From: Escherichia phage CJY920
DNA: 64,000 nucleotides
Sequence record: PQ349265.1
Direction: 5' to 3' (one strand)
Shown here: piece after piece, positions 631-64,000 of the stretch
How the letters are laid out: each line of letters begins with the position of its first letter
Numbering within the stretch: position 1 is the stretch's first letter
Translations under genes and position numbers: made by a program
The notes under the pieces: model-generated
Databases searched by the model: none
The model's input: only the letters and a program-made list of their open reading frames with translations
Told to the model about the DNA's origin: nothing

Positions 631-1028
631 TTTATTGGAGAGTCACTGCCTTAGTGTGAAGTTAAAACGAGGAGCCGTCGAACTGTCTGATTAATGATTT
701 GCGAATCATTATAGTTTTAAGACCCCGGCAGTTTTACGGTGTACCTCTTGAATGTTATTCTTATAGCGGCAAGTGCATGCTACCCCGAGGTGATGGCCAA
801 TCGGGAGTACGCCTCAAGGCCTATATATCCATCAGTATATATCTTATCCTCGAGAAATCGAACCCGGAACCTTTAAGCTAACGGTGTGCAACAGATAAGA
901 GCTATAAGGTATGATGACGGGTTTATGGTTATCCTGGTCGTTAAATATCCAAAAACCTATGTTCCCCTTGAGGGCTTGCGCAGGCAATGCCAATAAGTCC
1001 TGCATTTTCATTTAAAAGAGAATTTATA

Positions 1029-1205
1029 ATGGCAAAACAAGCTAAAGCAAAGAAAGCAGTTGAAAAGAAAGTTGGTGATTCTAAACGCGCTGGTTACAAG
1101 CGTGGGTCGAACTCTCGTATCAATCAAACTGTTGAGAAGATCATGCGCCGAGCACGTGCGGTTCTTCGAGATGATGCTTCTCGTTTTGGTAAGCAGAAAG
1201 CATAA
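1029..1205 (+). CDS. small lysine-rich basic protein (58 aa), hypothetical
   Basis: ATG at 1029 in frame with track ORF 987..1205; followed by hairpin terminator. Confidence 0.35.
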   Translation: MAKQAKAKKAVEKKVGDSKRAGYKRGSNSRINQTVEKIMRRARAVLRDDASRFGKQKA

Positions 1206-1208
1206 GTT

Positions 1209-1235
1209 GAGGACTCCTTCGGGAGTCCTTTTTTA
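1209..1235 (+). terminator. rho-independent terminator (GGACTCC-ttcg-GGAGTCC + T-run)
   Basis: Perfect 7-bp stem, tetraloop and T6 read directly. Confidence 0.6.
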
Positions 1236-1250
1236 TTTTCCAAAGATTGC

Positions 1251-1290
1251 ACAAAGTTGTTTACAGTATGGTTCCTTTGTGATAGTATTA
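1251..1290 (+). promoter_or_regulatory. early-type promoter (GTTTAC -35 at 1259-1264, TAGTAT -10 at 1283-1288) with conserved upstream CACAAAGTT element
   Basis: Motif read directly; same element recurs at about 61353 and 61723. Confidence 0.45.
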
Positions 1291-1375
1291 TCTTACACAA
1301 ACAAAGGAGAATAAAATGAAAACGATTAATCGGGTTACGGTCATTGGGCTGATGTTGAAATTATAAGTATTGAAA

Positions 1376-1834
1376 ATGTCTGAGCTAGAAATAAGAAGCA
1401 ATTTTAGATGGCCATCATGTGCATTAAGCAATTTCGCCCAATGGCCTTTCGTTATGGATGGTATCCAATTTGGAGGTCTCGAAGGATTCCTCCAAGGATG
1501 TAAGGTGAAAAATGTTGAACAGCAAAGACGTATATTTGGGTTATCCGGGCTTGCCGCCCAACAAGCTGGAAGGTCTTATGCTAGAGCTCAGGACCGTGGC
1601 ACGTTGTTCTGGCTTGGAACTCCGTTTTCAAGATATTCCGAAGCATGGAAAGAATTATACACAAATGCATATTTTGAAGCAGCGATCCAAAACAGGGGTT
1701 TTCGTGATGCATTACAAGCCTCGAAAGGAAAAGTTTTGAAGCACAGCATGGCTAGTGGTCTAACAAAAGATGATACAATACTAACCGAAGCTGAATTTAT
1801 TGATGTGTTAAACCTATTAAGAGACTCTCTATGA
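1376..1834 (+). CDS. NADAR/YbiA-like (DUF1768-like) domain protein
   Basis: Motif LSNFAQWPFVMDGIQFGGLEGFLQGCK resembles the YbiA/NADAR signature (SNF..P...DG...E..FQ..K); first ATG at 1376 (track start 1370 is TTG). Confidence 0.5.
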   Translation: MSELEIRSNFRWPSCALSNFAQWPFVMDGIQFGGLEGFLQGCKVKNVEQQRRIFGLSGLAAQQAGRSYARAQDRGTLFWLGTPFSRYSEAWKELYTNAYFEAAIQNRGFRDALQASKGKVLKHSMASGLTKDDTILTEAEFIDVLNLLRDSL

Positions 1835-2679
1835 AGCCAACTATTTTGACTGATATTGATGGAGTATGTTTAAGCTGGCAATCAGGCCTTCCTTATTTTG
1901 CTCAGAAATATAATCTTCCGTTAGAACATATTTTAAAAATGATCCAAGATGAGAAATTTATTTCTCCAGGTAAACTCTTTAATTGTGATGAAGAACTTGG
2001 TGTCAAGTTAATTGAAAAATACAATCGTTCAGATTTTATTCGTTACTTGTCTCCGTATAAAGATGCCCTGTGTGTAATTAACAAATTAAAAGAAGATTAT
2101 AATTTTGTAGCTGTTACAGCATTGGGTGATTCTATTGATGCTCTATTAAATCGTCAATTTAATTTGAATGCTCTTTTTCCTGGTGCCTTCTCAGAAGTAA
2201 TGATGTGTGGTCATGATTCTTCAAAAGAAGAGTTGTTTAAAAAGGCAAAAGAGAAATATAACGTAATTTGTTATATTGACGATCTCGCTCACCACTGCGA
2301 CCACGCGAGTGAAATATTAAATGTTCCGGTTTATTGGATGGCTCGAGGAGAACGTGACAATATTCCAAAAACTGCTCAGCGAGTTTATACATGGAATGAT
2401 GTAGAAAATAAGCTTTTTTCGCCGAAGGAAAATAAAGAAAGTTTTGATAGTGAAAAAGCTATAAAAGATTTAATTGAGAAGATGGTTAAAAACGATTCTT
2501 TTCCTTGGAACACTACCTGGAGAACGCCTGGATTAAATCCTTATAATCATCTATATCATCTATATCATCCATATCAGACACATCCGTTTCAGACATGGAA
2601 CTATATTAAACCTGGTGGCATAGAGTATTTGTATAATAGACCTACTAGTGGTGATAATATTTTTCAAGGAGCATTCTAA
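1831..2679 (+). CDS. HAD-superfamily phosphatase/nucleotidase-like protein with Tyr/His-rich C-terminal tail
   Basis: N-terminal LTDIDGV matches HAD motif I (DxDG); 282 aa. Confidence 0.5.
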   Translation: MKPTILTDIDGVCLSWQSGLPYFAQKYNLPLEHILKMIQDEKFISPGKLFNCDEELGVKLIEKYNRSDFIRYLSPYKDALCVINKLKEDYNFVAVTALGDSIDALLNRQFNLNALFPGAFSEVMMCGHDSSKEELFKKAKEKYNVICYIDDLAHHCDHASEILNVPVYWMARGERDNIPKTAQRVYTWNDVENKLFSPKENKESFDSEKAIKDLIEKMVKNDSFPWNTTWRTPGLNPYNHLYHLYHPYQTHPFQTWNYIKPGGIEYLYNRPTSGDNIFQGAF

Positions 2680-2948
2680 TGTTTGTTGTTCATACTATTT
2701 ATGAAAATGAAGATAATACTACACGTGATTACGGTCACGTAAATCAATTTTTTAGATGCAATCCAGAATTCCGTGCTCAAAAAGACGAACGAATTTTTAA
2801 AAAATGTGTAGAACAAGGTTTCATTTACGTCAAGCACTGGATGCAAGGAAATAAAGTTAGAACTACATATCATAAGTCTTTGCCTGAGCTTAATGATGAA
2901 TTGATTTATAATAGAAATGTAAATCAAACTCTGAAGGATGAACAATGA
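2679..2948 (+). CDS. hypothetical protein (89 aa)
   Basis: ATG at 2679, tightly packed between flanking genes. Confidence 0.4.
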   Translation: MFVVHTIYENEDNTTRDYGHVNQFFRCNPEFRAQKDERIFKKCVEQGFIYVKHWMQGNKVRTTYHKSLPELNDELIYNRNVNQTLKDEQ

Positions 2949-4405
2949 TTCTTAAAATTCTGAATGAAATAGCATCTATTGGATCAACTAAGCAGAAGCA
3001 AGCAATTCTTGAAAAGAATAAAGATAATGAATTGCTTAAACGAGTATATCGTCTGACTTATTCTCGTGGGTTACAGTATTATATCAAGAAATGGCCTAAG
3101 CCTGGTATTGCTACCCAGAGTTTTGGAATGCTGACCATTACCGATATGCTTGACTTTATTGAATTTACGTTAGCTACTCGGAAATTGACTGGAAATGCAG
3201 CAATTGAGGAATTAACTGGATATATCACTGATGGTAAAAAGGATGATGTTGAAGTTTTGCGTCGAGTTATGATGCGAGACCTTGAATGCGGTGCTTCAGT
3301 ATCTATTGCAAATAAAGTTTGGCCAGGTTTAATTCCTGAACAACCTCAAATGCTGGCAAGTTCTTATGATGAAAAAGGCATTAGTAAGAATATCAAGTTT
3401 CCAGCTTTTGCCCAGTTAAAAGCTGATGGGGCTCGGTGTTTTGCTGAAGTCAGAGGAGATGAATTAGATGATGTTCGTCTTTTATCACGAGCTGGTAATG
3501 AATATCTAGGATTAGATCTTCTTAAGGAAGAGTTAATCAAAATGACCGCTGAAGCCCGCCAGATTCATCCAGAAGGTGTGTTAATTGATGGCGAATTGGT
3601 ATACCATGAGCAAGTTAAAAAGGAACCAGAAGGCCTAGATTTTCTTTTTGACACTCCTGAAATTAGCAAAGCTAAAGACTTCGCAGAAGTAGCTGAATCT
3701 CGTACTGCTTCTAATGGAATCGCTAATAAATCTTTAAAGGGAACTATTTCTGAAAAAGAAGCTCAATGCATGAAGTTTCAGGTCTGGGATTATGTCCCGT
3801 TGGTAGAAATATACGGTCTTCCGGCGTTTCGTTTAAAATATGATGTACGTTTTTCTAAACTAGAACAAATGACATCAGGATATGATAAAGTAATTTTAAT
3901 TGAAAACCAGGTAGTAAATAACCTAGATGAAGCTAAGGTAATTTATAAAAAGTATATTGACCAAGGTCTTGAAGGTATTATTCTCAAAAATACCGATGGA
4001 TTGTGGGAAAATGCTCGTTCAAAAAATCTCTATAAATTTAAAGAAGTAATTGATGTTGATTTAAAAATTGTAGGAATTTATCCTCACCGTAAAGACCCTA
4101 CTAAAGCCGGTGGATTTATTCTTGAATCAGAATGTGGAAAAATTAAAGTAAATGCTGGTTCAGGCTTAAAAGATAAAGCCGGTGTAAAATCACATGAACT
4201 TGACCGTACTCGCATTATGGAAAACCAAAATTATTATATTGGAAAAATTCTAGAATGTGAATGCAACGGTTGGTTAAAATCTGACGGCCGCACTGATTAC
4301 GTTAAATTATTTCTTCCGATTGCGATTCGTTTACGTGAAGATAAAACTAAAGCTAATACATTCGAGGATGTATTTGGTGATTTTCATGAGGTAACTGGTC
4401 TATGA
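2945..4405 (+). CDS. 30: ATP-dependent DNA ligase
   Basis: 486 aa (T4 ligase is about 487 aa as I recall); adenylation motif KADGAR; synteny with alt. Confidence 0.9.
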   Translation: MILKILNEIASIGSTKQKQAILEKNKDNELLKRVYRLTYSRGLQYYIKKWPKPGIATQSFGMLTITDMLDFIEFTLATRKLTGNAAIEELTGYITDGKKDDVEVLRRVMMRDLECGASVSIANKVWPGLIPEQPQMLASSYDEKGISKNIKFPAFAQLKADGARCFAEVRGDELDDVRLLSRAGNEYLGLDLLKEELIKMTAEARQIHPEGVLIDGELVYHEQVKKEPEGLDFLFDTPEISKAKDFAEVAESRTASNGIANKSLKGTISEKEAQCMKFQVWDYVPLVEIYGLPAFRLKYDVRFSKLEQMTSGYDKVILIENQVVNNLDEAKVIYKKYIDQGLEGIILKNTDGLWENARSKNLYKFKEVIDVDLKIVGIYPHRKDPTKAGGFILESECGKIKVNAGSGLKDKAGVKSHELDRTRIMENQNYYIGKILECECNGWLKSDGRTDYVKLFLPIAIRLREDKTKANTFEDVFGDFHEVTGL

Positions 4406-4590
4406 AAGCTTACTTAGAAACAATTGTCATTGCTCAAAAAGAAGGTGGAGATGTTTCTACTTCTGTATCACAAGTCATTCTCGAATTTGTAGATGCATAT
4501 GCTTATAATAAATTTACAGAAACATTTGATGCCTATGAAAAAGGACCAAAGTTTGAAATATATCGTACTCTCTTACCACTAGATTACTAA
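4402..4590 (+). CDS. hypothetical protein (62 aa)
   Basis: ATGA overlap with ligase stop; terminator directly downstream. Confidence 0.35.
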   Translation: MKAYLETIVIAQKEGGDVSTSVSQVILEFVDAYAYNKFTETFDAYEKGPKFEIYRTLLPLDY

Positions 4591-4606
4591 AGGCCTTCGG
4601 GCCTTT
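4589..4606 (+). terminator. hairpin terminator (AAAGGCC-ttcg-GGCCTTT)
   Basis: Inverted repeat read directly. Confidence 0.5.
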
Positions 4607-4611
4607 AATTT

Positions 4612-4619
4612 TATAAATA
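4612..4619 (+). promoter_or_regulatory. T4 late promoter box TATAAATA upstream of alt paralog 1
   Basis: Exact TATAAATA about 20 nt upstream of the ATG at 4640. Confidence 0.6.
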
Positions 4620-4639
4620 GAATAAACACTAGAGAGGAT

Positions 4640-6736
4640 ATGATGGAACTCATTACAGAATTATTTGACGAAGATACTACTCTTCCGATTACAAACTTAA
4701 ATCCAAAGAAGAAAATACCACAAATTTTTTCAGTTCATGTTGATGACGCAATTGAACAACCAGGCTTTCGTTTATGTACCTATACATCTGGAGGTGATAC
4801 TAACCGTGATTTAAAGATGGGCGATAAAATGATGCATATTGTTCCTTTTACATTAACTGCTAAAGGTTCAATTGCTAAATTAAAAGGTCTCGGTCCAAGC
4901 CCAATTAATTATATCAATTCAGTTTTTACTGTTGCAATGCAGACGATGCGTCAGTATAAAATTGATGCCTGTATGCTCCGTATTCTTAAGTCTAAAACTG
5001 CCGGTCAAGCTCGACAAATTCAAGTTATTGCTGATAGACTTATCCGTAGTCGTTCAGGTGGCAGATACGTCCTTCTTAAGGAACTCTGGGATTATGATAA
5101 AAAGTATGCATATATTCTTATACATCGCAAAAATGTATCACTAGAAGACATTCCAGGAGTTCCGGAAATTAGTACCGAGCTCTTTACTAAAGTTGAATCG
5201 AAAGTCGGCGATGTTTATATCAATAAAGATACTGGAGCTCAAGTAACTAAAAATGAGGCAATTGCAGCATCTATTGCACAAGAAAACGATAAACGTTCTG
5301 ACCAAGCTGTAATCGTTAAAGTTAAAATTTCCCGTAGAGCAATTGCACAAAGTCAGTCATTGGAATCTTCTAGATTTGAAAGTGAATTATTCCAGAAGTA
5401 TGAATCTACTGCAGCTAATTTCAATAAACCTGCTACAGCTCCTTTAATTCCCGAAGCAGAAGAAATGAAACTTGGAATTAATTCAATAGCTTCTAAAACT
5501 AAGGCAGCAAAAATTATTGCCGAAGGAACCGCAAATGAACTTCATTATGATTATAAATTCTTTTCAAAAAGTGAGGTTAATGAAGTTTCTGAAAAAATTA
5601 AAGATGTAATTCTTAATGCGATTAAAAATGAACCGACTACTTCAATAAAATGTTTAGAGAAGTATGCAGCAGCTATTAATAAATTCTTTGAAGAATATAA
5701 AGATACTTGGCTTGATAAACATAATAAAACCCGTAAAGGACAGCCAGATGAAGTCTGGGAAGAAATGACTAAAAATTCCTGGAACGCAGCAAAAACTAAA
5801 TTCCTCAAAAGAATGATTTACAGCTTTTCTGGAATTGGTGCAGGTCCAATGATTGATATTACTATTGCCCGTGATGGTTCTAAATATACTCCATCACAAA
5901 AGCGCGGCATTAGAGAGTATTGTGGTTCAGGATATACTGACATCAATAATCTTCTTTTAGGACGCTACAATCCAGAACGATATGATGTAATGAGTGAAAA
6001 AGAAATTGAATCTGCTATAAATAACTTAGATTCAGCTTTTGAAAATGGTGACCGTATACCGGAAGGAATTACAGTTTATCGTGCACAAAGTATGACTGCT
6101 CCTATATACGAAGCACTAGTTAAAAATAAAGTGTTCTATTTCAGAAATTTTGTATCTACTTCTTTAACTCCTATCATTTTTGGACGTTTTGGAATTACAC
6201 ATGCTGGTATTGGTCTTTTAGAACCAGAAGCTCGTAATGAATTGACAGTTGATAAAAATGAAGAAGGAATAACTATTAATCCAAACGAAATAAGAGCGTA
6301 TAAAGAAAATCCTGAATACGTTAAAGTTCAAATAGGATGGGCAATTGATGGAGCTCATAAAGTTAATGTTGTATATCCAGGAAGTCTCGGAATAGCAACA
6401 GAAGCTGAAGTTATTCTACCACGCGGATTGATGGTCAAAGTTAATAAAATAACTGATGCTTCTAATAATGACGGAACAACATCTAATAACACAAAACTCA
6501 TTCAAGCTGAAGTTATGACTACAGAAGAACTCACCGAATCGGTAATTTATGACGGTGACAGTCTAATGGAAACTGGTGAAGTAGTTGCAATGACAGGTGA
6601 TATTGAAATAGAAGACAGAGTTGACTTTGCATCATTTGTTTCATCAAATGTTAAACAAAAAGTAGAATCATCTCTTGGAATTATTGCGTCTTGCATAGAT
6701 ATTACAAACATGCCTTACAAGTTCGTTCAAGGATAA
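4640..6736 (+). CDS. Alt-like mono-ADP-ribosyltransferase, paralog 1 (698 aa)
   Basis: ART R-S-E motifs (TVYRAQ, FVSTSL, EAEVILPRG); N-terminus MELITE resembles a prohead-protease cleavage site. Confidence 0.8.
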   Translation: MMELITELFDEDTTLPITNLNPKKKIPQIFSVHVDDAIEQPGFRLCTYTSGGDTNRDLKMGDKMMHIVPFTLTAKGSIAKLKGLGPSPINYINSVFTVAMQTMRQYKIDACMLRILKSKTAGQARQIQVIADRLIRSRSGGRYVLLKELWDYDKKYAYILIHRKNVSLEDIPGVPEISTELFTKVESKVGDVYINKDTGAQVTKNEAIAASIAQENDKRSDQAVIVKVKISRRAIAQSQSLESSRFESELFQKYESTAANFNKPATAPLIPEAEEMKLGINSIASKTKAAKIIAEGTANELHYDYKFFSKSEVNEVSEKIKDVILNAIKNEPTTSIKCLEKYAAAINKFFEEYKDTWLDKHNKTRKGQPDEVWEEMTKNSWNAAKTKFLKRMIYSFSGIGAGPMIDITIARDGSKYTPSQKRGIREYCGSGYTDINNLLLGRYNPERYDVMSEKEIESAINNLDSAFENGDRIPEGITVYRAQSMTAPIYEALVKNKVFYFRNFVSTSLTPIIFGRFGITHAGIGLLEPEARNELTVDKNEEGITINPNEIRAYKENPEYVKVQIGWAIDGAHKVNVVYPGSLGIATEAEVILPRGLMVKVNKITDASNNDGTTSNNTKLIQAEVMTTEELTESVIYDGDSLMETGEVVAMTGDIEIEDRVDFASFVSSNVKQKVESSLGIIASCIDITNMPYKFVQG

Positions 6737-6739
6737 ATC

Positions 6740-8797
6740 ATGGAACTTATTACAGAATTATTTGACGGCGCTTCGGCGCCGGTTGTTAACTTAAATCCTA
6801 AGCATAAAATACCTCAAATTTTTGCTATTCAAGCCGGTGAAGAAAGCGTGCTTCCTGGATTTAGATTTTGTACATACACCTCTGGCGGTGATACAAATAA
6901 AAATGTTAAGCCAGGCGATAAAATGATGCATATCGTAATGATAGGTGTTAATGAGAAACTATCATTAGTTAAACTTAAAAACTTGGGTGGAAATCCAATT
7001 GGTGTCATTAATGCGGTTTTTGATACTGCTCTTCAAACAATGAAACAGTATAAAATTGACGCATGCCTATTCCGCGTGCTAAAGAGTAAAACAAACGGTG
7101 CAGCTCGTCAAATGCAAGTTATTGCCGACCGTTTAGTACGTACTAAAGGAGCAGGTCGATATGTTCTTTTAAAGGAAATCTGGGACTATGATAAAAAGTA
7201 TGCATATATTATGGTTTACCGTAAAAATGCCAATTTAGAAGACATTCCAGGTGTACCTCCTATTTCAACTGAGTTATTCACAAAAGTTGAATCAAAGGTT
7301 GGTGATGTTTATGTAGACGTTAAAACAGGTAATGCTGTTCCTAAAGCTGTTGCTGTTGCTGCTTCTATTGCTTTAGAAAATGATAAGCGTACGGATCAAG
7401 CTGTTATTCAGAAAACTAAAATTAGTCGTCGATTAGCAGCACAAGCTCAATATTCTACTGTCGATGCTTCACTTCAGGGTGATAGCTTCGCTGCTAAGAA
7501 ATATCAAGAGTTTGAATCTAAAGTTCCGGTATATAAAGCAGAAGGACCAATGAACTCCGGTGTTATTCAAGTTGGTTCAAACTTCAGCAAAGGAGCTATC
7601 GGTGGTATGAGGAGTGCTTCTCGTTTTAAATCTAATGATTATGAATTAGAAAGCTTCCGAAATCATATTGCATTGGCTCATGCACGTTTACGTGATCCAT
7701 CTATCAAGTTACAGAGCGATATAACATATCAAGGTTCTCAGGAATATTTAAAGAATAAAGAATTTTTTGATTATAAAACTGATAAAATTTTAAGCGATCT
7801 TGCTGACATTAATATTTCTAATAGCTTTGATGTTATTAAGAAAATTGTCAATGATTTAGTTAAAGGTTCTAAAGCCACACCAGATGAAAAGGTAGCTATT
7901 GTTCAATTTGTCATGAATGGCGTTTATAAATTGATTAATGAATCTGCTTCTCAAGCGTATGAATACGCAAGCACCGAAGTAACTCCAAAAGGATTAACTC
8001 AGGCTGAGTCTGATGTAATTGAAGATTATTGTGCAGATTCATATGTTGAAATGAACTCGTTCCTTTTAGGTAAACCAGATTCTACTCGTGAAGAATATAT
8101 GGAACGAGCTATTAAACACATCGAGACAATGGATTCTGCCTTTGCCAAAGGATCAGTTCTTCCTCCAGGAACTACACTTTATCGTGGACAAGAAGTTACC
8201 TTTAAAACTTTACGTCATAATATTGAAAATAAAATGTTCTATTTCAAGAACTTCGTATCCACATCGCTTAAACCAAATATCTTCGGTGAGTATGGTAAAA
8301 ACTATATGGCTCTAGATGATTTCAGTGCAGTATTTTCTGGTGAAGGAGAAGGTTCAGTTGATGCTGAAGATTTAATGCATATGGGTAGTCATTCTGCTTA
8401 TGCGAATGAAGATGCTGAAACTAGCGTAGGTATGGTAATTAAAGGAGCTGAGCGAATCAAAGTTATCGTTCCAGGACATTTATCAGGATTTCCATCAGAA
8501 GCTGAAGTTATTCTACCGCGTGGAATTTTGCTGAAGATTAATAAAGTGAGTACGTACATGATGAAAGAAACTGCTTATAATAAGTATCTAATCGAAGGCA
8601 CAATCGTTCCTCCTTCTGAACAATTAGAAGAATCGGTATATGATGGCGACCATCTAATGGAAACTGGTGAAGTTCGTCCAATGGCTGGATTTAATCAATT
8701 CCTTGTAGAAGAATCAAAAGAAGAGGAAAACGAAGTTTCTCAAATCTTGGCTTCTTTGGTTAACATCAACGGAATGTCTAAAAAGTTCAAGATGTAG
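6740..8797 (+). CDS. alt: Alt ADP-ribosyltransferase, paralog 2 (685 aa)
   Basis: Paralog of the upstream ORF; TLYRGQ, FVSTSL, EAEVILPRG; length near recalled T4 Alt (682 aa). Confidence 0.8.
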   Translation: MELITELFDGASAPVVNLNPKHKIPQIFAIQAGEESVLPGFRFCTYTSGGDTNKNVKPGDKMMHIVMIGVNEKLSLVKLKNLGGNPIGVINAVFDTALQTMKQYKIDACLFRVLKSKTNGAARQMQVIADRLVRTKGAGRYVLLKEIWDYDKKYAYIMVYRKNANLEDIPGVPPISTELFTKVESKVGDVYVDVKTGNAVPKAVAVAASIALENDKRTDQAVIQKTKISRRLAAQAQYSTVDASLQGDSFAAKKYQEFESKVPVYKAEGPMNSGVIQVGSNFSKGAIGGMRSASRFKSNDYELESFRNHIALAHARLRDPSIKLQSDITYQGSQEYLKNKEFFDYKTDKILSDLADINISNSFDVIKKIVNDLVKGSKATPDEKVAIVQFVMNGVYKLINESASQAYEYASTEVTPKGLTQAESDVIEDYCADSYVEMNSFLLGKPDSTREEYMERAIKHIETMDSAFAKGSVLPPGTTLYRGQEVTFKTLRHNIENKMFYFKNFVSTSLKPNIFGEYGKNYMALDDFSAVFSGEGEGSVDAEDLMHMGSHSAYANEDAETSVGMVIKGAERIKVIVPGHLSGFPSEAEVILPRGILLKINKVSTYMMKETAYNKYLIEGTIVPPSEQLEESVYDGDHLMETGEVRPMAGFNQFLVEESKEEENEVSQILASLVNINGMSKKFKM

Positions 8798-8826
8798 TTT
8801 ACAAGTCCCTCGTGTTGTGTTATAAT
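8797..8826 (+). promoter_or_regulatory. early-type promoter (GTTTAC at 8797-8802, TATAAT at 8821-8826)
   Basis: Motifs with 18-nt spacer read directly. Confidence 0.4.
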
Positions 8827-8857
8827 AATCTTACTGACATAACATGAGGAACACAAA

Positions 8858-9148
8858 ATGAAATCTTCTTTGCGCTTTTTAGGCCAAGAACTTGTAGTTG
8901 AAGGCGTTATTCCTGCTGATAACACTTTTAATGAAGCAGTTTATGATGAATTTATCAAAATTTTTGGAACAGATAAAAAGTTCGGAATTTTTCCTTCTGA
9001 AAATTTTTCAAAGCCAGAGCAGACTGAAAGCATTTTCCAGGGTGTAGTAACAGGTAAATTTGAGTCAGAAGCTCCGGTAAAAATTGAAGTTTATATTGAA
9101 GATAGTTTAGTTGCTTCAGTTTCCGCTTTTATTTCATTCCGTAAATAA
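8858..9148 (+). CDS. hypothetical protein (96 aa)
   Basis: ATG at 8858 with GAGGA RBS. Confidence 0.4.
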   Translation: MKSSLRFLGQELVVEGVIPADNTFNEAVYDEFIKIFGTDKKFGIFPSENFSKPEQTESIFQGVVTGKFESEAPVKIEVYIEDSLVASVSAFISFRK

Positions 9149-9154
9149 AAACAT

Positions 9155-9172
9155 GGGGACCTTTCGGTCCCC
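9155..9172. terminator. bidirectional hairpin (GGGGACC-tttc-GGTCCCC) between convergent genes
   Basis: Read directly. Confidence 0.5.
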
Positions 9173-9176
9173 ATTG

Positions 9177-10142
9177 TTATATTGCTCCTAATATTTTACT
9201 TTGCGAGTTGACAATTCCCGTCATAGTATTAATGTTTGAAATGCTTCCTGCAGTTCCTCCTAATCTACTAAGTCGTGAAAGCGAATTAGATAGTCCAGTA
9301 ACACCTCCACTATTTCCGAGAACGCTTTGAATGCCATTTATAGCAGCAGATTCAAGCCACTCAAGCGCAGCTTGTCTATCAACCGCTCCAGCCTGCATGA
9401 CTCTATACGCAAAAGTAACATCAAATGTAGTTATTTGGTTATCTCCATCATATGATAACTCAGGAGCGCTCACTGACACTGGAATGCATCCGGTGAACAT
9501 CACAGCAGTATGAGGTAATCCATTACGAGCATGAAGATTAACCTGAATATCTGCCTCGACATCTTGTGGCAAAGCACGCAGTCCAGTTACTGGGTCTTGA
9601 ACAGCATTAACCCAGTCTTGCATTGCACGATAATTACATGCTTCTGAATCCATTCTAAATGAAATAACCAAAGGGTCTAATTCTCTCCCAGTTATACGAA
9701 TATTAGGAGAATTATAGTTCCAGTCAGTTTCATAGGATAATCTATTCTCTGGCATTTTTACTGAATATATCATCAATCCAGATGAGTTATATGCCATATT
9801 AAAGAAGTCAATTAAATATGTACCAACTGTAAATGAGCCCAATAAACTTTGAACTGTACGTTGACTCATGGCACCAATAAGATATTTACTAACTCCTGAT
9901 TTTCTTATCAGTTTTTGTGTGCCAGCAGTAATTAGCGTGGTAATTCCCTGATTAATATCGACTTGAGTCAATCCTAACCAATCTGAATTTAAACCCAAGT
10001 TATTATAAGAAAAGTTGCTAATTGAACTTATCAACGAAGAGCTTTTAGTTGATGGAGTTGTCGCAAAAACGCAGCTAAACATATTATTACGTTGGAAATC
10101 TGCGTTTATTGCTTGATTATTAAATTCCTCTAAAGAATACAT
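9177..10142 (-). CDS. 54: baseplate tail-tube initiator gp54
   Basis: 321 aa; position and length match T4 gp54. Confidence 0.8.
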   Translation of the reverse strand: MYSLEEFNNQAINADFQRNNMFSCVFATTPSTKSSSLISSISNFSYNNLGLNSDWLGLTQVDINQGITTLITAGTQKLIRKSGVSKYLIGAMSQRTVQSLLGSFTVGTYLIDFFNMAYNSSGLMIYSVKMPENRLSYETDWNYNSPNIRITGRELDPLVISFRMDSEACNYRAMQDWVNAVQDPVTGLRALPQDVEADIQVNLHARNGLPHTAVMFTGCIPVSVSAPELSYDGDNQITTFDVTFAYRVMQAGAVDRQAALEWLESAAINGIQSVLGNSGGVTGLSNSLSRLSRLGGTAGSISNINTMTGIVNSQSKILGAI

Positions 10143-62745: not shown

Positions 62746-62818
62746 TGGGAATTAGCCAAGTTGGTAAGGCATAGCACTTTGACTGCTAGATGCAAAGGTT
62801 CAAGTCCTTTATTCCCAG
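62746..62818 (+). tRNA. tRNA-Gln (anticodon UUG)
   Basis: Acceptor TGGGAAT/ATTCCCA pairs perfectly; anticodon loop cTTTGac; T-arm AAAGG-ttcaagt-CCTTT. Confidence 0.8.
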
Positions 62819-62819
62819 C

Positions 62820-62906
62820 GCGAGAATGGCCAAATTGGTAAAGGCACAGCACTTAAAATGCTGCGGAATGATTTCCTTGTGGGTTCGAGTCCCACTTCTC
62901 GTACCA
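62820..62906 (+). tRNA. tRNA-Leu (anticodon UAA), type II with long variable arm, CCA encoded
   Basis: Acceptor GCGAGAA/TTCTCGT; anticodon stem CAGCA/TGCTG with loop cTTAAAa; T-arm GTGGG-ttcgagt-CCCAC. Confidence 0.8.
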
Positions 62907-62911
62907 AATTT

Positions 62912-62983
<72 letters not shown>

Positions 62984-62995
62984 AAATTTAATTTA

Positions 62996-63068
62996 CTCCG
63001 TGTAGCTCAGTAGGTAGAGCACCTCACTTGTAATGAGGACGTCGGCGGTTCGATTCCGTCAATCAGCA
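62996..63068 (+). tRNA. tRNA-Thr-like (anticodon UGU) with non-complementary acceptor stem; possible pseudo or chimeric tRNA
   Basis: D-arm, anticodon arm (CCTCA-cTTGTAa-TGAGG) and T-arm well formed, but 5' CTCCGTG cannot pair with 3' AATCAGC. Confidence 0.4.
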
Positions 63069-63074
63069 TATCAA

Positions 63075-63148
63075 GGCCCTGTAGCTCAACGGTTAGCAGC
63101 AGTCCCCTCATAAGGGAAAGGTTACCAGTTCGAATCTGGTCTGGGTCA
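63075..63148 (+). tRNA. tRNA-Ile/Met-like (anticodon CAU)
   Basis: Acceptor GGCCCTG/CTGGGTC pairs 6 of 7; anticodon loop cTCATAa; T-arm ACCAG-ttcgaat-CTGGT. Confidence 0.6.
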
Positions 63149-63189
63149 TATTTTGAGAACATAAATACTCTTAGAAATAGGAGATATTT

Positions 63190-63756
63190 ATGTTCCATTA
63201 CACTTATAAAATAACAAATAAAATTAATAATAAAATTTATATTGGTGTGCATTCTACCGAAAATTTAGATGATGGATATATGGGTTCTGGTAAATTATTA
63301 AAAAGAGCCCAAGATAAGTATGGTATAGAAAATTTTTCTAAAGAAATATTAGAGTATTTTGATGATAAAGAATCTATGCTTGAAGCCGAGAAAAATATTG
63401 TCACAGAAGAGTTTTTAAATAGATCAGATGTGTATAATTTAAAACTTGGCGGTGAAGGTGGATGGGACCATTTAAATATTCCTGGGATGCTAAACCGGAA
63501 GAAAGATGCTAGCTTAAAAGGAGCTAAATCGTTTAAGTCACGGTTTGAAAATGATATTTTACTTCAAGAAAAATATCGTAAAATTGGTTCAAATGTATTT
63601 AAACGTTTGTGGTCAACTCCTGAATATAGGGAAAAATTTTTAAATAATAGCAGATTTTTAAATAAGCATCATACTCCTGAAACTATTAATAAAATGAAAG
63701 AAATTCACGCTAAAATAATCACCAGAAAGGAGAAAAGAATTCCCAATTTGGTATGA
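63190..63756 (+). CDS. segB: GIY-YIG homing endonuclease, SegB-like, inside the tRNA cluster
   Basis: YTYKITN...KIYIGVH...YMGSG; located in the tRNA cluster where I recall T4 segB. Confidence 0.7.
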   Translation: MFHYTYKITNKINNKIYIGVHSTENLDDGYMGSGKLLKRAQDKYGIENFSKEILEYFDDKESMLEAEKNIVTEEFLNRSDVYNLKLGGEGGWDHLNIPGMLNRKKDASLKGAKSFKSRFENDILLQEKYRKIGSNVFKRLWSTPEYREKFLNNSRFLNKHHTPETINKMKEIHAKIITRKEKRIPNLV

Positions 63757-63854
63757 TGTGGATTCATTCATTAGATGAAAAAGTTTCTAAACGTATTAAG
63801 AAAACTGACCCAATTCCAGAAGGATGGTTTAAAGATCGAAAAATGAAATTTTAA
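63753..63854 (+). CDS. 33-aa ORF in another frame overlapping the segB-like stop; possible detached C-terminus
   Basis: ATGATG at 63753; ends 3 nt before tRNA-Arg. Confidence 0.25.
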   Translation: MMWIHSLDEKVSKRIKKTDPIPEGWFKDRKMKF

Positions 63855-63857
63855 TTA

Positions 63858-63934
<77 letters not shown>

Positions 63935-64000
63935 AACAAGAAACCGGGTCGCTACCGGTAAGTCGTCGGACTGATGTTCCCTGGGTAAGGAATTGTGTTA

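Follow-up and report, generated by a model that had tools for sequence, protein, structure and literature searches.

A tandem pair of diverged Alt-type ADP-ribosyltransferase genes in the T4-like Escherichia phage CJY920

Escherichia phage CJY920 (PQ349265.1) carries two adjacent, full-length genes for Alt-type ADP-ribosyltransferases (ARTs) on the + strand of the 64,000-nucleotide stretch analysed here (the window), which is part of a Tequatrovirus (T4-like) genome. Copy 1, the ortholog of T4 alt, occupies 4643-6736 (697 aa; 698 aa if read from the ATG at 4640), and copy 2, a second Alt-type gene of 685 aa, occupies 6740-8797. We consider it about 80% probable that this locus is the ancestral, intact T-even alt region and encodes two packaged, trimmed and injected arginine mono-ARTs, the substrates of copy 2 differing from those of copy 1. 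The integrity of the genes, their catalytic and cleavage motifs, their fold, synteny, purifying selection and distribution are established by the observations below. The tandem pair as such is already known and annotated; it is the ordinary, common and ancestral state of the T-even alt locus, to which T4 is the exception.

The initial annotation had described two neighbouring open reading frames (ORFs) within 4640-8797, coding for 698 and 685 aa. Both ORFs are present, at 4640-6736 and 6740-8797, and the second length holds, but 698 aa is reached only from the first ATG of copy 1. This ORF opens with ATGATGG, as it does in T4, T2, PP01, phiD1 and SHFML-11. Because the annotated Alt of these relatives uses the second ATG, and because the N-terminal cut of T4 Alt at ITE-6 is counted from MELITE, the product of copy 1 is most likely the 697-aa protein starting at 4643. 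Read from this second ATG, copy 1 begins with MELITELFD, as copy 2 does and as had been noted. Over their full length the two proteins share 41% identity (BLASTP, E 3e-159), far beyond chance, and this value averages very different segments. The identity of 60-65% estimated by eye for the N-terminal third compares well with the 66% that we measured over residues 1-244. The divergence described for the remainder is confirmed as well: identity drops to 8% in the centre (residues 245-410), and the ART core reaches 35%, the C-terminal tail 37%. At the DNA level, identity is only 69% even in the N-terminal part, where synonymous divergence (pS) is 0.63 and saturated.

The catalytic triad is present in both copies, as the initial annotation had also stated. 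In copy 1 it consists of VYRAQ (R480, codon 6080-6082), FVSTSL (S505, 6155-6157) and EAEVILPRG (E587, 6401-6403; E589, 6407-6409); the corresponding motifs of copy 2 are LYRGQ (R482, 8183-8185), FVSTSL (S507, 8258-8260) and EAEVILPRG (E587, 8498-8500; E589, 8504-8506), all on the + strand. The loss of a catalytic residue from one copy was looked for, and both proved intact. The arginine, the S-T-S and the E-x-E are kept in all 12 aligned Alt copies, save for S-A-S in the Dhakavirus altb genes, and the catalytic positions are invariant across a separate alignment of 18 sequences. ExE, as opposed to QxE, is the signature of arginine-specific ARTs. In T4 Alt, a change numbered E577A abolishes ADP-ribosylation (PMC11404850). 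We observed that the ExE glutamates of NP_049811 count as E574 and E576 and that its residue 577 is a valine (retrieved T4 stretch 2455-4503, - strand); the mismatch is probably a numbering offset in that paper or its construct.

Profile searches place both proteins in the same families. Each matches phrog_802, the family named 'Alt-like RNA polymerase ADP-ribosyltransferase', over positions 2-674 of 674 (E 8e-273 for copy 1, 2e-254 for copy 2), and PF03496 (ADPrib_exo_Tox) is matched with 129.9 bits by copy 1 (E 9e-38) and 73.2 bits by copy 2 (E 2e-20), the gathering threshold being 23.4 bits. A sequence search of the PDB returned no solved Alt, no match for copy 2 and weak matches to CdtA and iota Ia alone for copy 1, whose arginine and E-x-E align with those of the solved toxin CdtA. 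The AlphaFold model of full-length copy 2 (pLDDT 76.3, pTM 0.68) is confident except at its two ends, residues 1-11 and 630-685. Foldseek aligns the ART domain of this model with Vis, C3bot, CDTa, iota Ia and VIP2, at a probability of 1.0 and E values of 2e-7 to 1e-4, Vis (4xzk) being the match at E 2e-7; the TM-score on the target is about 0.6 across these toxin matches. The Alt copies thus have the same catalytic fold and motifs as the C3-like and binary-toxin R-S-ExE ARTs of PF03496, but identity to them is only 13-19%. The toxins also carry a translocation or adaptor domain where Alt has a phage N-terminal domain and gp21 propeptides, and they are delivered by a B-component or a secretion system, whereas capsid delivery is predicted for the Alt proteins.

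As the initial annotation had proposed, we aligned both copies with T4 Alt, ModA and ModB: identity to T4 Alt is 70% and 41%, and neither BLASTP nor phmmer detected any similarity of T4 ModA or ModB to either copy or to T4 Alt, nor is there a ModA or ModB homolog in the window. ModA and ModB are early, single-domain ARTs of about 200 aa that lack an N-terminal packaging domain, unlike the multi-domain window copies of about 690 aa; they have been grouped with Alt in the same R-S-E clade (PMC5512222). No N-terminal MuF (Phage_Mu_F) domain was found in either copy, which sets the pair apart from the MuF-fused, polyvalent-protein-like effectors packaged in heads. Pfam searches with the isolated N-terminal domains gave no match, and those with the isolated centres gave only sub-threshold noise (4HB_MCP_1, E 0.004; CesA, E 0.008). 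Precomputed annotations also name a newer family, PF26846.

Copy 1 is 70% identical to T4 Alt (NP_049811, 682 aa) over the full 682 aa, and this identity is very unevenly distributed. The N-terminal domain, residues 1-244 with the 6-residue propeptide MELITE (4643-5374, + strand), is 100% identical in protein sequence, and identity is again high, at 94-97%, over the last ~80 residues. Within the intervening variable central helical region and ART domain (residues 245-632; 5375-6538, + strand), it falls to 14-47% across the centre and to about 67% across the ART core. In DNA, about 430 nt of the two genes are not alignable by blastn, and pS rises from 0.12 in the N-terminal part to 0.58 in the ART core. 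We identify copy 1, on these comparisons, as a mosaic ortholog of T4 alt that carries a different allele of the centre and ART cassette. The likeness to T4 extends to the R/STS/ExE residues, the ITE-6 and LTE cleavage motifs, the upstream terminator, the TATAAATA motif and the position between alt.1 and alt.-3/gene 54.

Copy 2 shares the whole architecture of T4 Alt, to which it is 41% identical over 679 aa, yet it is a separate paralog, of which T4 keeps only the first 116 codons. Its N-terminal domain (residues 1-244 with the MELITE propeptide; 6740-7471, + strand) is followed by the central helical region and ART domain (residues 245-631; 7472-8632, + strand). Residues 1-116 correspond to two small T4 genes, alt.-1 and alt.-2, which lie 3' of alt in T4, at the position of copy 2: alt.-1 (NP_049810) is 95% identical to residues 1-56 and alt.-2 (NP_049809) 98% identical to residues 62-116. 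Copy 2 is also matched by the PHROG families 23015 (E 2e-40) and 15247 (E 3e-38). DNA alignment indicates that T4 lost one A from an A-run, which produced the alt.-1/alt.-2 frameshift, and that it lacks a 1,699-bp segment equivalent to window 7088-8786 (+ strand). Imperfect 9-bp direct repeats bound this deletion, CTAAAGAGT at 7079-7087 and CTAAAAAGT at 8778-8786 (+ strand), and the C-terminus of alt.-2 (…SSKCSLQVPRVVL) is an out-of-frame read-through into the spacer between copy 2 and alt.-3. The T4 record labels alt.-1 and alt.-2 'an old duplication of the first part of gene alt'. The alignment shows instead that alt.-1 and alt.-2 are the stump of a full-length second gene, left by a 1-nt loss and a 1,699-bp deletion between repeats, and not a partial duplication.

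The T4 allele is far less frequent than the intact one. A query laid across the T4 deletion junction matched without interruption in 91 of the 499 related records; these include T4 stocks, RB55 and RB59 as well as the independent isolates slur03/08/14, SG1 and VEc20. Since T4 and these records lack copy 2 without obvious cost, copy 2 is dispensable, at least in some hosts. Among about 499 Tequatrovirus records, some 401 (about 80%) have an intact copy 2 and about 18% the T4-type deletion, and the intact pair is the majority state in this genus. With its occurrence in Dhakavirus and others, the duplication comes close to being universal in T4-type genomes, a point that the initial annotation had left as a possible objection. 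The whole 4.8-kb region is present in one piece, at a coverage of at least 80%, in 343 phage records (best identity 97.8%), the window pair is 97-98% identical in DNA to many deposited genomes, and the diverged C-terminal 446 residues of copy 2 recur at an identity of at least 95% in 401 phage records, T2 included.

Many RefSeq records already annotate 'Alt-like RNA polymerase ADP-ribosyltransferase (x2)', and the pair is found in T2, PP01, phiD1, Shfl2 and others. In JS98 the tandem genes are named alta and altb and lie in the same context. Paralogs of alt were noted in RB49, 44RR (an Aeromonas phage) and T4 (Nolan et al. 2006, PMC1524935), and an alt duplication in Acinetobacter phage Ac42, JS98 and Bp7 (Jin et al. 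2014, PMC4177764). We found no architectural difference between the window pair and JS98 alta/altb: copy 2 groups with altb in the centre, ART domain and tail (47-58% identity), and copy 1 with alta. Dhakavirus altb differs in two details: S-T-S is replaced by S-A-S, and the acidic insert that precedes ExE is longer. In Escherichia phage PSD2002 (Dhakavirus wg01; retrieved stretch 744-6856) we saw three Alt-like genes in tandem, which encode 631, 693 and 707 aa and are each annotated 'hypothetical protein'; the first of them (631 aa) lacks the YDGDxLMETGE…KF tail and keeps the YR, STS and ExE.

Phylogenetic grouping differs along the length of the proteins. In per-segment identities and neighbour-joining trees, the centre, ART core and tail cluster with the corresponding copy of the other genus, those of copy 1 with alta and PSD_b of PSD2002 and those of copy 2 with altb and PSD_c; the endings are likewise copy-specific, KF[VI]QG in the copy 1 group and KFKM in the copy 2 group. 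Because these segments group by copy across genera, the duplication predates the split of Tequatrovirus and Dhakavirus. The N-terminal domain, by comparison, groups by genus: identity is 66% for the two window copies and 64% for those of JS98, as against 41-48% when the genera are compared. This could reflect old gene conversion or co-evolution with a genus-specific prohead core. As a test between the two, pS amounts to 0.63-0.74 in all paralog and cross-genus comparisons and is saturated, the within-genome pairs (0.635-0.650) being marginally lower.

The catalytic cassette has a history of its own. The ART core of PSD_b (PSD2002, retrieved stretch 2648-4729) is 95% identical in protein to that of copy 1, with a pS of 0.34 and a nonsynonymous divergence (pN) of 0.025, while the N-terminal domains of the two are 48% identical, with a pS of 0.73. 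This disparity between core and N-terminal domain indicates a comparatively recent exchange of the catalytic cassette between genera. Within Tequatrovirus the copy 1 cassette (window 5375-6538) occurs as a window/T2 type (at least 95% identity in 306 records), a T4 type (at least 95% in 160) and a third allele that is about 80-90% identical to the window type (about 34 records), and an intact copy 2 accompanies either major copy 1 allele, for example in SHFML-11. The centre and ART cassette of copy 1 behaves, on this distribution, as an exchangeable module.

Both genes show the marks of maintained coding sequences. Pairwise Nei-Gojobori estimates gave ratios of nonsynonymous to synonymous substitution (dN/dS) of 0.030-0.058 among six orthologs of copy 2, at dS 0.10-0.25, indistinguishable from the 0.023-0.062 of copy 1 and its same-allele orthologs. 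No internal stops were found in the copies examined, and copy 2 is full length in all six genomes. These estimates point to strong purifying selection on both copies.

The predicted processing of the two proteins follows that of T4 Alt, which gp21 trims at ITE-6 and LTE-619 to 68.2 kDa, as determined by mass spectrometry (Ali et al. 2017, PMC5694885); we reproduced the 68.2 kDa of mature T4 Alt from its sequence. Both published cleavage motifs are present in the window, ITE-6 in each copy and, towards the C-terminus, LTE-632 in copy 1 (predicted cut after codon 6536-6538, + strand) and LEE-631 in copy 2 (predicted cut after codon 8630-8632, + strand). LEE-631 stands at the position aligned with the T4 cut, just before the motif YDGDxLMETGE, which is common to all aligned copies except the short third copy of PSD2002 (PSD_a). 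The low-confidence termini of the copy 2 model coincide with the predicted propeptides. The predicted mature masses are 70.2 kDa for copy 1 and 69.2 kDa for copy 2.

Each protein would accordingly be organised in three parts: a 6-residue propeptide with an alpha/beta domain of about 240 residues, which is expected to place the protein in the prohead core; a variable helical linker; and a C3/VIP2-type R-S-ExE ART domain that ends in a C-terminal propeptide of about 55-65 residues. In T4 itself, each head holds about 40 copies of Alt, which enter the host together with the DNA. For the window pair we infer late co-transcription, packaging, cleavage, injection, activity, arginine specificity and differing substrates. 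A common late transcript would probably run from TATAAATA at 4612 through both genes as far as the terminator at 9153-9174. By analogy with T4 Alt, the two proteins would become part of the prohead core, and gp21 would trim them at I-T-E(6) and L-x-E(~631); the mature 70.2- and 69.2-kDa enzymes would then be injected along with the DNA and use NAD+ to mono-ADP-ribosylate host proteins on arginines. T4 Alt ADP-ribosylates the alpha subunit of host RNA polymerase and other host proteins (PMC10468400; PMC11404850). Copy 1 is the ortholog of this enzyme, and copy 2, an old paralog orthologous to Dhakavirus altb, would most likely have a different substrate set.

The isolated N-terminal domain of copy 2 (residues 1-244) is modelled with a pLDDT of 83.6 and a pTM of 0.83. 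We observed a matching fold in big, unrelated myoviruses, where it forms part of large uncharacterised proteins (Foldseek probability 1.0, TM-score 0.4-0.5, 9-16% identity), for example in phiEa2809, Dickeya RC-2014, Vibrio VP-1 and Kuja, and Agrobacterium Atu_ph07. Some of these carriers are annotated with zeta-toxin, deaminase or ParB/Srx domains. The Alt N-terminal fold may be a common head-delivery module.

C3-like ARTs have their substrate-recognition (ARTT) loop in the stretch from S-T-S to E-x-E. In the Alt proteins this stretch is the least conserved of the ART domain, with 19% identity between copies 1 and 2 and 38% between copy 1 and T4 Alt, and in copy 2 it is strongly acidic. Because the divergence is greatest in this region, it is plausible that the copies differ in their substrates. 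A bolder, tentative extension of this view, which we hold to be possible and still improbable, is that copy 2 is a second injected effector with host targets of its own, possibly a component of defence or translation rather than RNA polymerase, and that the polymorphism and cassette exchange reflect an arms race with the host. If this were true, T4 would naturally lack one of the ADP-ribosyltransferases that T-even phages inject, and this would account for our finding no study of that enzyme.

Several points weigh against our reading of the locus. The literature search found no functional, biochemical or virion-proteomics study of a second Alt; a paper on injected proteins covers Ip proteins only (PMC12373910), and another makes no statement on Alt (PMC7917993). 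The difference in substrate range is deduced from divergence alone, the structure model is of copy 2 only and its underlying alignment holds just 18 sequences, and promoters and terminators are called from motifs, sigma-70-like sites being no more frequent here than chance predicts (17 against 18.8 expected). The absence of copy 2 from T4 and from the 91 of 499 related records, without obvious cost, must be counted here as well. It lends itself to the view that copy 2 is a redundant duplicate that contributes nothing and is drifting to loss, with T4 as the end state, since the frameshift and 1.7-kb deletion occur in viable phages and T4 alt itself is non-essential for head assembly (PMC5694885). 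Drift of this kind is nevertheless very improbable given that copy 2 evolves at a dN/dS of 0.03-0.06 at dS 0.10-0.25, equal to copy 1, and is full length in the six genomes examined and in about 401 records. Moreover, its Dhakavirus ortholog persists at about 47-58% identity with the KFKM tail and the same motifs, and the null is of one allele type only, with a single common junction instead of many independent decays.

A recent, lineage-specific duplication, which would make the pair anything but ancestral, has the N-terminal domains in its favour, closer within a genome (66%, and 64% in Dhakavirus) than across genera (41-48%). We regard it as just as improbable as drift to loss, since the centre, ART core, tail and endings group by copy across genera, and the N-terminal DNA of the two copies is only 69% identical with saturated synonymous sites (pS 0.63); old gene conversion or co-evolution with the capsid core explains the genus grouping better. 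Purifying selection, intactness and cross-genus grouping by copy led us to reject both the pseudogene and the recent-duplication readings of copy 2. Somewhat less remote, though still unlikely, is that copy 2 is made and active without being injected, having a late role in the producing cell or contributing above all to the structure of the prohead core. Both roles, that of a core protein and that of an enzyme, have been ascribed to Alt (PMC11404850), and N-terminal domains that are only 66% identical could differ in their affinity for the core. Copy 2 does, however, retain the MELITE propeptide, those N-terminal-domain residues that are invariant and, at the position of the T4 gp21 cut, an L-x-E, and it lies in the same putative late transcription unit as copy 1, features that accompany packaging in T4 Alt. 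We therefore favour two packaged and injected enzymes.

Both copies occupy the conserved alt position, between gene 30/alt.1 and alt.-3/gene 54, near the baseplate genes and behind a late-promoter motif. According to the ORF list and the gene order of relatives, DNA ligase gene 30 lies at 2945-4405 (+ strand); its stop is overlapped by an alt.1 homolog of 62 aa (4402-4590, + strand; Pfam PF24647, E 2e-29), placed as alt.1 is in T4 and PP01. A hairpin resembling an intrinsic terminator, AAAGGCC-TTCG-GGCCTTT with a T-run (4588-4607, + strand), would end the gene 30/alt.1 unit, and its sequence is kept in T4, T2, PP01, phiD1 and SHFML-11. A terminator has been predicted 5' of alt in five of six T4-like genomes (Nolan 2006, PMC1524935). 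Directly after the hairpin, the T4 late-promoter motif TATAAATA is matched at 4612-4619 (+ strand), 23 nt 5' of the alt start codon, in agreement with the late promoter that had been annotated before the first copy; the placement is common to T4, T2, PP01, phiD1 and SHFML-11. The gap between the stop of copy 1 and the ATG of copy 2 is 3 nt, with AAGGA 7 nt before that ATG, and no terminator-like site was found between the copies.

We also observed a second TATAAATA at 6016-6023, inside copy 1 and about 720 nt 5' of copy 2. We did not count it as an internal late promoter for copy 2, as chance alone would, by our estimate, give one or two matches to this 8-mer in 12 kb of such AT-rich DNA; the match fits chance, yet it could be a promoter. 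Downstream of copy 2, a match to a sigma-70 early-type promoter (TTTACA-17 nt-TATAAT, 11/12, with TG; 8798-8826, + strand) is the top-scoring promoter-like site within 4300-9300 and precedes an alt.-3 homolog of 96 aa (DUF5498; 8858-9148, + strand), positioned as T4 alt.-3. In T4, mutants with a C-terminal extension of alt.-3 escape the CmdTAC defence by blocking CmdA degradation (PMC11618068). A bidirectional terminator-like hairpin (9153-9174, both strands) separates alt.-3 (+ strand) from gene 54 (- strand) and is the first such site on the + strand 3' of the alt late promoter. Beyond it, the - strand carries the baseplate genes 54 and 48.

Elsewhere in the window, a tRNA cluster at 62746-63934 contains Gln(ttg), Leu(taa), Gly(tcc), a CAT-anticodon tRNA and Arg(tct), with a 188-aa ORF (63190-63756) between the last two. 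T4 has eight tRNAs. The cluster looks reduced in comparison, in a window that ends at 64000.

Knowledge of phage-injected ADP-ribosyltransferases comes largely from T4, which has no intact second copy. Some clarifications that follow for the family are modest: alt.-1 and alt.-2 are the remnant of a deletion, this deletion is a shared natural allele, and the cassette and the N-terminal domain have had different histories. Beyond these, most T-even relatives, T2 included, probably inject two enzymes of this kind, whose substrate-facing loops are very different.

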